From an uncultured Noviherbaspirillum sp. (lineage in GTDB: Bacteria > Pseudomonadota > Gammaproteobacteria > Burkholderiales > Burkholderiaceae_D): a stretch of DNA of 64,000 bases. The notes beneath the pieces were generated by a model, which saw nothing but the letters and a program-made list of their open reading frames with translations, ran no database searches and was not told the origin of the DNA. Position 1 is the stretch's first letter, and each line of letters begins with the position of its first letter. The stretch is from NCBI GenBank assembly GCA_966211585.1, contig CBIHNU010000013.1:36384-100383 (forward strand), written 5' to 3'. Made by a program: the position numbers and the translations under genes. Shown piece after piece: positions 19,063-24,662 of this stretch.

Positions 19063-20706
19063 CTATTCTGGCCAGGCCCGGTCCAGTATCTGCCGTTGCA
19101 ATGCGGGTGCGGCGAGCGTGCCGTAGACCCGGCCGCATTCGGCATCGATTCGGCTGGCAATGAATGCATCGGCAATCGGCGCCGGTGCGTGGCGCAGCAT
19201 CAGGCTTGCCTGGGTTGCCAGCACGAGCCGCTGCACGAAGCGGCGCGCCTGCATTTCCCTTTGCTCGGGCGGCGTATGCAAATCCTTGCGCAATCCGCCG
19301 GCCAGCGCCTGCAGGCCGGCATGCGCATGCGCCGACCGATCCAGTTCATCGAGCAGCAGCAGGAATCCTTCGGTTTCCCTTTCGACTGCGCGCAGTACAT
19401 CCAGGCACATCACATTGCCGGAACCTTCCCAGATCGAATTCACCGGCGCTTCGCGGTACAGGCGTGCCATCGGGCCGGTTTCGACATAGCCGTTGCCGCC
19501 CCAGACTTCCATGCATTCGCCGGTGAATTCGAGCGCGCGCTTGCAGATCCAGAACTTGGCAGCCGGGGTGACAATGCGGCGCCAAGCGCGTTCCAGCGGA
19601 TCGTCCGGTGTTTCGAATGCGCGCGCCAGGCGCAGCATCAGCAGCGTTGCCGCTTCGCTTTCCAGTGCCAGGTCCGACAGCACATTGCGCATCAGCGGCT
19701 GTTCGGCCAGCAGCTTGCCGAAGGCCGTGCGATGCCGGGCGTGGTGCGCGGCTTGCACAAAGGCTTGGCGCATCAGGCCGGCGCTGCCGATCACGCAATC
19801 GAGCCGGGTGTAATTCGCCATTTCGATGATGGTCGGGATGCCGCGGCCTTCGTCGCCGACCATCACGCCGTACGCATCCTGGAATTCCACTTCGCTGCTG
19901 GAATTGGAGCGGTTGCCGAGCTTGTCCTTCAGTCGCTGCACCAGCACCGCATTCTTGCTGCCGTCGGGCCGCCAGCGCGGCACGAAAAAGCAGGACAGGC
20001 CGGCGTCGGTACGCGCCAGCACCAGGTGCGCATCGCACATCGGCGCGGAAAAAAACCATTTGTGACCGGTCAGCAGGTAGGCCGCGCCGCGTCCTTCGCC
20101 GTTCAGCGGCCGCGCAGTGGTGGCATTGGTGCGGACGTCGGAACCGCCTTGCTTTTCGGTCATGCCCATGCCGATCAGCATCGAGCGCTTCTGTTCGAGC
20201 GGCAAGTCGCGCGGATCGTGTTCGCAGGAAAACAGTTTCGGCTGCAGCGTCGCAAACAGCGCCGGCTCGTTGCGCAGCACTGGAATCGAAGCGAACGTCA
20301 TCGTGGTCGGACACAGCGATCCGGCTTCCACCTGCGAATGCATGAAATAGCCGGCGGCACGCGCGATATGCGCGCCCGGCTTCGGTTGCATCCATGGCAG
20401 CGCATGCAGGGCTTCGCGGCGCAACAGCGCGAGAAGCTGGTGCCAGCTTGGATGAAAATCGACCACATCGATGCGGCGGCCAAAGCGGTCGTGTGTGCTC
20501 AACTCGGGCAGGTGGTGGTTCGCCAGCTCGCCCAAATGCAATACTTCCTTGCTGCCCAGTTCGGCGCCGTAGTGCCTGAGCTGGTCTTCATGCCATTCCG
20601 CGCCGCCGTGCCGCACGCCATCGCTGAGCGCCACGTCGGTGGTGAAAAGGTTGTAATCCTGAAGTTCGGGGACCTGGTTGGTGACTTCATGTGTGGGCCA
20701 TTGCAT
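19063..20706 (-). CDS. aidB: AidB-like acyl-CoA dehydrogenase
   Basis: CPTTMTFA, GMGMTEKQGGSDVR, GHKWFFSAPMCD, KLGNRSNSSSEVEF, SIWEGSGNVMCLDVLR match the AidB subfamily. Confidence 0.85.
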   Translation of the reverse strand: MQWPTHEVTNQVPELQDYNLFTTDVALSDGVRHGGAEWHEDQLRHYGAELGSKEVLHLGELANHHLPELSTHDRFGRRIDVVDFHPSWHQLLALLRREALHALPWMQPKPGAHIARAAGYFMHSQVEAGSLCPTTMTFASIPVLRNEPALFATLQPKLFSCEHDPRDLPLEQKRSMLIGMGMTEKQGGSDVRTNATTARPLNGEGRGAAYLLTGHKWFFSAPMCDAHLVLARTDAGLSCFFVPRWRPDGSKNAVLVQRLKDKLGNRSNSSSEVEFQDAYGVMVGDEGRGIPTIIEMANYTRLDCVIGSAGLMRQAFVQAAHHARHRTAFGKLLAEQPLMRNVLSDLALESEAATLLMLRLARAFETPDDPLERAWRRIVTPAAKFWICKRALEFTGECMEVWGGNGYVETGPMARLYREAPVNSIWEGSGNVMCLDVLRAVERETEGFLLLLDELDRSAHAHAGLQALAGGLRKDLHTPPEQREMQARRFVQRLVLATQASLMLRHAPAPIADAFIASRIDAECGRVYGTLAAPALQRQILDRAWPE

Positions 20707-20812
20707 GGCGGATATCCTTTTCTCTTTTCTCAATGATGATTACATCAACCCAAGTCTATAACTTGCGTCGGCTCAGGTAAAATGAGGCCTACTTCTAATC
20801 GTCTGCCTGCCC

Positions 20813-22699
20813 ATGTCTTATCAAGTTCTCGCCCGAAAGTATCGCCCGAAGAGCTTCGACACGCTCGTCGGACAAGAACATGTCGTGCGGGCGCTGACGC
20901 ATGCGCTGGAGCAGCAGCGTCTGCATCATGCGTATCTGTTTACCGGCACGCGCGGCGTCGGCAAAACCACGCTGTCGCGCATTCTTGCCAAATCCCTGAA
21001 TTGCGAAACAGGCATTACCGCGCAGCCGTGCGGTATCTGCGAAGCGTGTATCGCGATCGATGCCGGCCGGTTTGTTGACTACATAGAAATGGACGCGGCG
21101 TCGAACCGCGGCGTCGACGAGATGGCGCAGCTGCTGGAACAGGCGGTGTATGCGCCGTCCAACGCCCGTTTCAAGGTCTACATGATCGACGAAGTGCACA
21201 TGCTGACCAACCATGCGTTCAATTCGATGCTGAAGACGCTGGAAGAGCCGCCGGAGCATGTGAAATTCATTCTCGCAACCACCGACCCGCAAAAGATTCC
21301 GGTAACCGTGCTGTCGCGTTGCCTGCAATTCAACCTGAAGCAGATGCCGCCCGGACATATCATCGGCCACTTGGAAAACATTCTCGGCCAGGAAGACATT
21401 GCCTTCGATGCGCCCGCTCTGCGCCTGCTTGCGCAGGGTGCGCACGGCTCGATGCGCGATGCGCTGTCGCTGACCGATCAGGCGATTGCCTACGCAGCCG
21501 GGAAGGTGACGCTGGAAGCGGTGCAGGGCATGCTGGGCGCGCTCGACCAGTCGTACCTGATTCGGGTGCTTGATGCGCTGGCATCGAAAGACGGCGCCGG
21601 CCTGCTGGCCGTGGCCGATGAAATGGCGACGCGCAGCCTGTCGTACAACGCCGCGTTGCAGGATCTGGGAACCTTGCTGCATCGGATCGCGTTGGCGCAA
21701 ACGGTGCCGGCTGCGCTGCCGGACGATCTGCCGGAGCGGGAAGACATCATGCGGCTGGCAGCCGCGTTCGATGCCGAGGAAGTGCAGCTGTTTTACCAGA
21801 TTGCCGTGCACGGCCGCAATGAACTGAGTCTTGCGCCGGACGAGTACGCCGGCTTTTCGATGACCTTGTTGCGCATGCTCGCGTTCCGGCCCGGCATCGG
21901 CGCTGCGGAAGCAAAGCCGCTGCCGCAGAGGCCGGCCGTAACGGCACCTGCCGCAGCAGCGGCACCGGTCGCGCGTTTGAGCGCTGCTGCGCCGCAAGCC
22001 GTGGCGAGTGCGCCGGTCGGCCGCCCGGCTGCTGCTATGAGCCCCGCGCGTGCCGCACTGGAAGCCGCGCGCAACGGCGGCAAGCTGCAACCGATTGCTG
22101 TTGCACCGGCTGCGCCGGTCCGGACGATCAACGAAGCGCCGCCACCACCTTGGGAAGAAGAATTGCAGCCGGTGATGGCCACAGAGGCTCAAAAAAAAAC
22201 TGAACAGCCATTGATGCCGGCGGAAGCCGTCACGCGCGAACCGGAAGCGCAATCCGCGCCAATCGCGCCCGTTGCCAGGATGCGCCCGCCCGATCCGACC
22301 CCGGTTCCGTCGCTGAACTGGGACGGCAACTGGCCGGCGCTGGCCGCGTCGTTGCCATTGCGCGGCGTCGTGCATCAACTGGCGCAGCAGAGTGAGTTGC
22401 TGCAATGCGAATTGCTGGGCGACGGTGCGCAATTCCATTTGCGGATTCCGGTCGACACGCTGCGTTCTGCCGGCGCCGTCGACAAGCTGGCGAATGCATT
22501 GTCCGAGCATTTCGGCAAAACGATCCGTGTGCAGACCGAGATCGGTGCGGTCGAGCAGACCGCCAATGCGGCGGCGGTCGCGGAACGCGAGGCGCGTCAG
22601 CGCCAGGCAGAGCAGAACTTGCATAGCGATCCTTTCGTGCAGACACTGATGCGCGAATTCGGCGCGACCATCGTGCCCGGATCGATCAAACCCGTTTAA
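20813..22699 (+). CDS. dnaX: DNA polymerase III subunit tau/gamma
   Basis: [33 protein letters not shown]. Pro/Ala linker and C-terminal tau domain. Confidence 0.97.
22191..22203 (+). other. Candidate recoding site in dnaX (A9 run with immediate -1-frame stop)
   Basis: CAA AAA AAA ACT GAA. The -1 frame reads AAC TGA (stop at 22201-22203). Confidence 0.6.
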
Positions 22700-22716
22700 C
22701 TTCAAGGAGTACGACC

Positions 22717-23043
22717 ATGATGAAAGGCCAACTGGCAGGGCTGATGAAGCAGGCCCAGGCGATGCAGGACAACATGAAGAAGATGCAGGAACAGCTTGCG
22801 TCGATCGAAGTGGAAGGCGAGTCCGGCGCGGGCATGGTAAAGGTCGTGATGACCTGCAAGAACGATGTCAAGCGCGTGACCATCGATCCGTCGCTGCTGG
22901 GCGACGACAAGGACATGCTGGAAGACCTGGTTGCTGCCGCATTCAACGATGCGGTGCGCAAGGCGGAAGCGACTTCGCAGGAAAAAATGTCGGGCATGAC
23001 CGCCGGCCTGCCGCTGCCGCCGGGCTTCAAGATGCCGTTTTAA
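22717..23043 (+). CDS. ybaB: YbaB/EbfC nucleoid-associated protein
   Basis: [37 protein letters not shown]. Lies between dnaX and recR. Confidence 0.95.
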
Positions 23044-23048
23044 ACAGC

Positions 23049-23360
23049 ATGATTCTCGAAGTCGCTCAGCTCGACGTGATTCCCGGCCAGGAGACGGCGT
23101 TCGAAGCCGCTTTCGGGCAGGCGCAGTCCATCATCGCTTCGATGAAGGGCTACCTGTCTCATGAGCTGCAGCGCTGCGTCGAGCATGCCAATCGCTATGT
23201 GCTGCTGGTGCGGTGGCAAACGCTGGACGACCATACGATCGGTTTTCGCCAGTCGCCGCAGTACCAGCAGTGGCGCAAGCTGCTGCATCATTTTTACGAT
23301 CCGTTCCCGACCGTGCTCCACTATGAGCCGGTATCTGATGGCGCACTGAAACCTGCGTAG
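23049..23360 (+). CDS. Antibiotic biosynthesis monooxygenase (ABM) domain protein
   Basis: FEAAF...GYLSHEL...YVLLVRW...HTIGFRQS pattern. 103 aa. Confidence 0.85.
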
Positions 23361-23367
23361 TGCCGAC

Positions 23368-23964
23368 GTGAAATCTCCTTCCAGCCTCGAATTCCTGACC
23401 GAAGCCTTGCGCCGCCTGCCCGGCGTCGGACCGAAGTCGGCGCAACGCATGGCCTACCACCTGATGCAGCACGACCGCGACGGCGCGGCGATGCTCGGAC
23501 GCGCGCTGTCGCAGGCAGTCGAGCGCGTGCACCACTGCGCCAGGTGCAATACCTTCACCGAACACGACGTGTGCGAAACCTGTCTCGACAGCGAGCGCGA
23601 CGCAACGCTGCTGTGCGTGGTCGAATCACCGGCCGATCAATTGATGATCGAGCAGACACTTACGTACAAGGGCTTGTATTTCGTGCTGATGGGTCACCTG
23701 TCGCCGCTGGACGGTATCGGCCCGAAGGACATCCACCTCGAAAAGCTGATTGCACGCGCCACCGACGGCGAGGTGCAGGAAGTGGTGCTCGCCACCAATT
23801 TCACCAACGAAGGCGAAGCGACCGCGCACTACATCAGCGAGACGCTGAAGGCGCGCGGCCTGAAGGTCAGTCGCCTGGCGCGCGGCGTGCCGGTCGGCGG
23901 CGAGCTGGAGTACGTGGATGCGGGAACGATTGCCCGCGCAATGCTGGATCGCCGGTCGACGTAG
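23368..23964 (+). CDS. recR: Recombination mediator RecR
   Basis: [12 protein letters not shown]4 Zn finger (CARC..C..C), Toprim [19 protein letters not shown] start. Confidence 0.96.
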
Positions 23965-24002
23965 AAGCCTCACGTTGCCCGGTGCCGGACAGGAGCTCGA
24001 CG

Positions 24003-24662
24003 ATGTTCGTTCACTCGGCAGAAAACCAGAGCTGGCTGCGTGCCCGGTGGCAGGGGTTGGTAACGCCGTCGTCGCCGGACCGTTCGGCAGCGGATGCGAT
24101 TTGGGATGCGTTGGTGCGCCATTATTCGGAACCGCAGCGCGTGTATCACAACCTGTCCCATGTGATGACGTTGCTGCGCCATGCGGATGCGGAGCGTGCG
24201 AACATTCACCGGCCGGACGTCGTCGAGTTCGCCATCTGGTTTCACGACGCGATTTACGATACCCGAGCACATGACAACGAACAGCGCAGCGCGGCGTGGG
24301 CGCGCCATGCGATGCTGGGCATGGGCATCGATCCGCACATCATCGACGCAGTCGCGCAATGCATACTCGCCACCCGGCGGCATGAAGTGAGCGCGCATGA
24401 GCTCGTCGATCTGCCGCTGTTTCTCGATCTCGACCTTGCGATTCTCGGCGCACACGAGGAAACCTACCGCCAGTACAGCAACGCGATCCGTGCCGAATAC
24501 GGCTGGGTGCCGGGGCCGGCTTATCGCGAGGGACGAACCCGGATATTGAAACACTTCCTCGAAAGGCCGACCTTGTTTTTCACGCCGGCGCTGGCCGCCC
24601 GCTACGAAATGCAGGCGCGGCGCAATATCGAGTGGGAGCTGCAGGAACTGTCTTCTTCGTAA
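24003..24662 (+). CDS. Predicted metal-dependent HD-superfamily phosphohydrolase
   Basis: YSEPQRVYHNLSH, WFHDAIYD, FLDLDLAILG, IRAEY motifs. Confidence 0.8.
   Translation: MFVHSAENQSWLRARWQGLVTPSSPDRSAADAIWDALVRHYSEPQRVYHNLSHVMTLLRHADAERANIHRPDVVEFAIWFHDAIYDTRAHDNEQRSAAWARHAMLGMGIDPHIIDAVAQCILATRRHEVSAHELVDLPLFLDLDLAILGAHEETYRQYSNAIRAEYGWVPGPAYREGRTRILKHFLERPTLFFTPALAARYEMQARRNIEWELQELSSS

Follow-up and report, generated by a model that had tools for sequence, protein, structure and literature searches.

The dnaX gene of an uncultured Noviherbaspirillum species carries nine consecutive A's in the part of the gene that precedes the C-terminal tau domain. The locus raises the question of whether this run serves to make a second, shorter DnaX protein (gamma) besides the full-length tau and, if so, whether the switch would be made by RNA polymerase or by the ribosome. 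The original prediction, made from the nucleotide sequence alone, was that this lineage makes gamma, probably by transcriptional slippage. We analysed the gene in a window of 64,000 nucleotides (the whole stretch to which the original prediction refers), in related genomes and in other families of the same order. The features of the gene are collected in Table 1.

The A9 run occupies positions 22191-22199 and is read in the frame of the ORF as CAA AAA AAA ACT, exactly as had been claimed. Positions 22190-22203 read C-AAAAAAAAA-CTGA, and the codons CAA AAA AAA ACT GAA encode Q460 K K T E. According to the ORF list, the zero frame of dnaX continues uninterrupted through the run to aa 628. The other two frames close soon after the run, the -1 frame after one codon and the +1 frame after four. 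In simulated transcripts with different run lengths, either an A10 run or a -1 ribosomal shift led to AAC-TGA and a product of 463 aa ending with QKKN, which confirmed the predicted protein. The A8 transcript produced 466 aa ending with QKKLNSH and the A11 transcript 467 aa ending with QKKKLNSH, while A6 and A12 transcripts stayed in frame.

Four Pfam domains were found in the DnaX of the window: DNA_pol3_delta2, DNAX_ATPase_lid, DNA_pol3_gamma3 and DNA_pol3_tau_5. The run lies about 100 codons 3' of the end of domain III (aa 357) and 43 codons 5' of the Pfam match to domain V, so the truncation would indeed fall just before the tau C-terminus. The clamp-loader core (domains I-III) is common to tau and the predicted gamma. 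In an exact look-up in a collection of 15 billion proteins, the DnaX of the window was on record only as the 628-aa tau form, and the A10 and A8 gamma products were absent from the collection.

Table 1. Features of the dnaX gene and of its A9 cassette (window coordinates).
Feature	Position	Strand	Remarks
dnaX, single open frame for tau	20813-22699	+	628 aa, 67.4 kDa; ORF list and Pfam
Clamp-loader core, domains I-III, aa 20-357	20870-21883	+	Pfam matches at aa 20-178, 183-230 and 232-357
Ala/Pro-rich linker 5' of the cassette, poorly conserved	21884-22187	+	Sequence; ~32% flank identity between relatives
AGAGG, SD-like pentamer, not conserved	22183-22187	+	4 nt from the heptamer
Recoding cassette CTC-A9-CTGA (candidate)	22188-22203	+	A9 at 22191-22199; A9CTGA invariant in 30/30, preceding CTC at least 90% conserved
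Tau-only C-terminal part, aa 463-628, absent from predicted gamma	22199-22696	+	Pfam DNA_pol3_tau_5
TGA stop, -1 frame	22201-22203	+	Read after one extra A or a -1 ribosomal shift; predicted 463-aa gamma ending QKKN, 49.6 kDa
TGA stop, +1 frame	22212-22214	+	Read from A8/A11 transcripts; 466/467-aa products
Weak GGAA-loop hairpin, outside the conserved cassette	22215-22232	+	-7.2 kcal/mol; starts 16 nt past the heptamer
Tau domain V	22328-22684, aa 506-624	+	Pfam DNA_pol3_tau_5

Runs of this length are rare in the genome. Its 4.93 Mb (60.3% GC) contain only 21 runs of at least nine A's or T's, the A9 of dnaX included. With a self-trained codon model, the run in dnaX was the only one for which the same open strand and phase were best on both sides, with scores that were low. 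Two other tests of whether the remaining 20 runs are genic, based on the longest ORF and on GC3 periodicity, failed because shadow ORFs are common; dnaX itself looked 'non-coding' in these tests. An antisense open frame of 636 aa (20795-22705, minus strand) spans all of dnaX. Such shadow ORFs arise often in DNA rich in GC, and this one confounded simple tests of coding status by ORF length.

Around dnaX, a gene of an AidB-like acyl-CoA dehydrogenase lies on the 5' side on the opposite strand (19063-20733). On the 3' side, a 103-aa gene of the antibiotic-biosynthesis-monooxygenase (ABM) type (23049-23360, plus strand) is situated between ybaB (22717-23043) and recR (23368-23964), and thus breaks up the usual dnaX-ybaB-recR cluster in the window. 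A scan of positions 20500-24200 found no SRP RNA next to dnaX.

For the conservation analysis, we scanned one genome per species and collected 80 dnaX loci of Oxalobacteraceae. Exact A9 followed by CTGA was present in 29 of the 80 loci and in the window (n = 30 carriers), which answers the question of conservation of the run and of the -1 stop put by the original prediction: the A9CTGA motif is identical in all carriers. In these genes the cassette is located at 72-77% of the gene length and leaves a tau-only tail of 141-186 aa. When the sequences were aligned without gaps, with the run as the anchor (n = 30), CTC-A9-CTGA was the only conserved stretch; the median pairwise identity in the 60 nt on each side was 0.32-0.33, and the flanks are near saturation.

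The conservation extends to positions where the encoded protein would not require it. The lysine codons of the cassette are AAA in 60 of 60 cases, compared to 45% elsewhere in the same genes, and the threonine codon is ACT in 30 of 30, compared to 10.6% elsewhere. The codon before the run ends in T in 28 of the 30 carriers, and GCT makes up 11.6% of the alanine codons elsewhere in these genes. Three bases that flank the run (22188-22190, 22200) are conserved as well, namely T at -2 and C at -1 before it and C at +1 after it, though these positions are synonymous or free. Fixed synonymous codons such as those of the cassette are beyond the reach of selection at the protein level. The gene of the window had been said to prefer AAG otherwise; the direction of this bias is right, but the bias itself is only slight (without the run, the gene has 10 AAG and 6 AAA codons). 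Within the run, none of the nine A's varies, not even those at 22191 and 22199, which an A_AAA_AAA heptamer can spare.

The most strictly conserved feature is the -1-frame stop, located one codon past the run in 30/30 carriers. The +1-frame stop is less regular and is still much closer than expected: its median distance is 5.5 codons downstream, compared to 21 at random positions in the same genes, and it lies within 10 codons in 80% of carriers compared to 29% under the null. None of 20,000 permutations gave a median as low as the observed one, in a test that ignores phylogeny and makes the p-values optimistic. Among 27 distinct flank clusters, the +1 stops vary both in codon and in position; therefore, each lineage has maintained its own +1 stop, and the stops do not descend together as a single block.

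A site of the E. coli type has an SD-like element about 10 nt upstream and a stem-loop about 6 nt downstream of the heptamer. We looked for such elements around the A9 run. RNAalifold, run on the 30 cassette sequences, predicted 0 pairs and no consensus structure. The MFE z-scores showed no trend, with averages of -0.36 for the 55 nt downstream and -0.18 for the 45 nt upstream; the power of this screen is low, as the E. coli positive control reached just z = -0.84. An SD-like GGAG or GAGG within 20 nt upstream was found in only 2 of 35 cassette-bearing sequences. The Rfam model of the DnaX frameshift element, RF00382, had no match at E <= 10 in the window and none in two cassette-bearing relatives, whereas the E. 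coli control reached 96.8 bits. The AGAGG and the weak GGAA-loop hairpin to which the original prediction had drawn attention are both present in the window, but neither is conserved in the relatives, and both are probably irrelevant. None of the 30 cassettes contains AAG, the site being A_AAA_AAA and not A_AAA_AAG. In the cassette-less relatives we looked for another X_XXY_YYZ heptamer that is closely followed by a stop in the -1 frame, and found none that is conserved. Genes for both tRNA-Lys(UUU) and tRNA-Lys(CUU) are encoded in the genome.

To place the carriers, we used a tree of DnaX residues 1-365 with 140 sequences, in which the nearest relatives of the window are Noviherbaspirillum, with 95% identity. 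Many deep branches carry the cassette: Noviherbaspirillum, Collimonas, Herminiimonas, Oxalicibacterium, Actimicrobium, a clade of freshwater MAGs and Undibacterium arcticum. Herbaspirillum sensu stricto, Massilia, Duganella, Janthinobacterium, most Undibacterium and Oxalobacter are without it. The state of the A-run requires 13 changes on the tree, compared to about 35 with shuffled labels. In alignments with the nearest carriers, the homologous position of Oxalicibacterium flavum holds a decayed remnant, CAAGAAAAAACGC, and at the same position the cassette is scrambled in L005 and deleted in L011. On the simplest reading, the cassette looks to have had one old origin in much of Oxalobacteraceae, with several independent losses thereafter. 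The loss of the cassette in many of the close relatives would mean that gamma made by it is dispensable, though useful. In E. coli, too, gamma is dispensable.

Two further observations concern the sequences in the tree. Remnant or deleted cassettes occur in species nested among carriers (L037, L005 and L011). Three entries labelled 'Candidatus Paceibacteria' (L016), 'Bordetella parapertussis' MAG (L024) and 'Polynucleobacter' MAG (L023) have dnaX genes of the Oxalobacteraceae type that fall inside the family; these bins are probably mislabelled or contaminated.

To look beyond Oxalobacteraceae, we sampled the same GTDB order with one dnaX for each family (57 families in the sample). In seven other families, the dnaX linker holds a run of A9 or A10 with stops near in both shifted frames: A9 in f42 (L098), f49 (L144), f55 (L131), f58 (L140) and f60 (L119/L081/L082), and A10 in f15 (L106) and f53 (L110). 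All three codon phases are represented among these runs, and their positions differ. About 49 of the 57 sampled families had no such run, and this patchy spread probably reflects repeated origin or repeated loss. No A7 run of this kind was present in any sampled family, and A8 was present in one. A single family, f52 (L141, G052), has A_AAA_AAG at about aa 392, the only such case, where the neisseria_FSE model scored 29.1 bits, below its 50-bit threshold. Thus, dnaX genes of apparent frameshift type and of apparent slippage type coexist in one order, and the run lengths form two classes, the A6G ribosomal type and the A9/A10 type seen here.

A C stands directly 3' of the run in five of the six A9-bearing families. 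Family f60 shares GCTC-A9-CT(G/A)A with Oxalobacteraceae, yet it is not their sister in the tree; its cassette could be explained either by shared ancestry or by convergence. In two of three f60 genomes the +1-frame stop is far from the run (236 and 332 nt). In this family, a small SRP RNA gene is located immediately 5' of dnaX (L081:917-1015, 81 bits).

We are highly confident that the cassette is a recoding site under selection, which would produce gamma by truncating DnaX before the tau-specific C-terminus, and the comparative evidence supports the original prediction on this point. A run without any role in recoding, encoding a conserved Gln-Lys-Lys-Thr-Glu linker peptide or persisting by mutational bias or hitch-hiking, would agree with the fact that several sister clades manage without it. 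Nevertheless, selection on the protein explains neither why rare synonymous codons are fixed in the cassette, nor the enrichment of stops in both shifted frames, nor the recurrence of A9/A10 runs with near stops at other positions and phases in other families, and we find this reading very improbable. Still less credible is a contingency locus at the DNA level, where replication slippage would toggle tau as in phase variation. Homopolymer runs are hot spots of replication slippage (discussed in PMC1088944), but the length is exactly nine in 30 of 30 independent assemblies, and a change of one nucleotide in the DNA would delete the C-terminus of tau, a part that E. coli cannot do without (10.1101/2022.11.10.516041).

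A programmed -1 ribosomal frameshift as the main source of gamma is the more serious competitor. The in-phase A_AAA_AAA heptamer (22192-22198) is in the right phase and is followed by AAC-TGA, with the -1 stop one codon on, a layout like A_AAA_AAG-AGTGA of E. coli, and it is this stop that is conserved most strictly. Besides, an A9 run always holds A_AAA_AAA in phase, and some -1 shifting would yield the same QKKN product. As the main route, this is still rather unlikely. Conserved 3' structure, a conserved 5' SD-like element and a match to RF00382 are all missing, and in E. coli the ribosome shifts far less readily on A_AAA_AAA than on A_AAA_AAG (PMC5009743). The two A's outside of the heptamer are invariant; a -1 shift needs only one stop, yet early +1-frame stops are strongly enriched; and tRNA-Lys(CUU) is present. 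The nine invariant A's, the stops in both frames, the lack of stimulators and the various phases in other families therefore favour slippage of the Thermus type over -1 frameshifting of the E. coli type. We consider slippage of RNA polymerase the likely main route to gamma, as the original prediction did; in its favour are the strict A9, the stops in both frames, the tRNA-Lys(CUU) of the host, and the lack of conserved stimulators and of an RF00382 match.

If slippage is the main route, RNA polymerase transcribing the T9 template would realign the nascent A-tract and release A10, A11 and A8 mRNAs besides A9. The A9 mRNAs, as well as A6 and A12, would be translated to full-length tau of 628 aa, and the A10 mRNAs would stop at AAC-TGA to give the 463-aa gamma. 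Translation of the A8 and A11 mRNAs would terminate four codons past the run. The resulting gamma would retain domains I-III without the polymerase-binding, tau-specific C-terminus and would join the clamp loader. We infer from sequence that slippage occurs, how efficient it might be, and that gamma enters the clamp loader. A more speculative extension, which we consider a long shot, is that the fixed T-C and C flanks tune the dwell of the polymerase (e.g. while it awaits scarce CTP), that the gamma:tau ratio would then follow nucleotide pools and growth state, and that the order, in which dnaX genes of PRF type, of slippage type and without a cassette occur together, would offer a natural system for studying the replacement of one recoding mechanism by another. 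The idea of a flank effect is based on the recurrence of T-C before and C after the run in the non-sister family f60, and of the C after it in five of the six A9-bearing families.

To our knowledge, slippage-made gamma has been shown experimentally only in Thermus, and the list of candidate lineages is very short. A search of the literature on dnaX in connection with Burkholderia, Oxalobacteraceae/Burkholderiales or the member genera found no report of the site. The present analysis adds to the presumed slippage lineages a large group of Betaproteobacteria from soil and freshwater that can be cultured and are amenable to genetics, among them Noviherbaspirillum, Collimonas, Herminiimonas, Oxalicibacterium and Actimicrobium. 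The sister clades with a decayed cassette could serve as natural 'knock-outs' for asking what purpose gamma has in the clamp loader. With regard to annotation, these dnaX genes should list a second, gamma product, which is missing from the automatic gene calls in our data.

Among the known systems, that of Thermus thermophilus appears to be the closest. There, according to the accounts of Larsen et al. 2000 given in PMC5009743 and PMC1088944, slippage on A9 produces mRNAs with extra bases, and near stops in both non-zero frames are described in the same two papers as a hallmark of the gene. The window shows all of the Thermus-type sequence features: a run of at least nine past domain III, one tau ORF, and stops in both frames. 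In both cases the sense strand carries A9 past the clamp-loader core, within one ORF for tau, the stops in the other frames are near, the short product (predicted here) would be without the tau C-terminus, and ribosomal stimulators would not be needed. Unlike Thermus, the carriers belong to another phylum (Betaproteobacteria/Oxalobacteraceae), slippage is predicted here from sequence, the -1 stop has its fixed place one codon past the run, and conservation includes the flanks (T-C on the 5' side and C on the 3' side).

The -1 frameshift of E. coli, Salmonella and Neisseria (RF00382) shares with the window the same gene and purpose, as well as the slippery Lys-Lys, the one codon and the -1 TGA. 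It differs from the window with respect to AAG, a conserved SD-like element, a stem-loop and an RF00382 match, all lacking here, and to the host, which has tRNA-Lys(CUU). Three of the four E. coli-type sequence features (A_AAA_AAG, the SD-like element, and the stem-loop or model match) are thus missing and the immediate -1 stop is present; the efficiency of A_AAA_AAA as a shifter in E. coli is also far below that of A_AAA_AAG (PMC5009743). The local peptides, AQKKTE here and AKKSE in E. coli, are similar, but this likeness is forced by the cassette, Lys-Lys followed by NNT-GAN, and says nothing for or against homology of the two sites.

Two other arrangements are more distant. In the two-ORF dnaX genes, with A10 (or A7-A9) runs, recoding is needed for making tau (Antonov et al. 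2013, PMC3711429). There, as in the window, a poly-A run at the gamma/tau boundary serves recoding, but the polarity is opposite: here the zero frame does not end at the run, tau results from standard decoding, and gamma would need the slip. In Caulobacter crescentus, gamma arises by partial ClpXP proteolysis of tau (10.1101/2022.11.10.516041); two DnaX forms come from one gene, as predicted here, by a route that, unlike the one proposed for the window, is post-translational and has no cassette at the nucleotide level. By analogy, a route of the ClpXP type could be in use in the relatives without A9. In the carriers we very probably see a known trick, that of Thermus, newly placed in Oxalobacteraceae, with A9 slippage providing a short and a long clamp-loader subunit from one gene.
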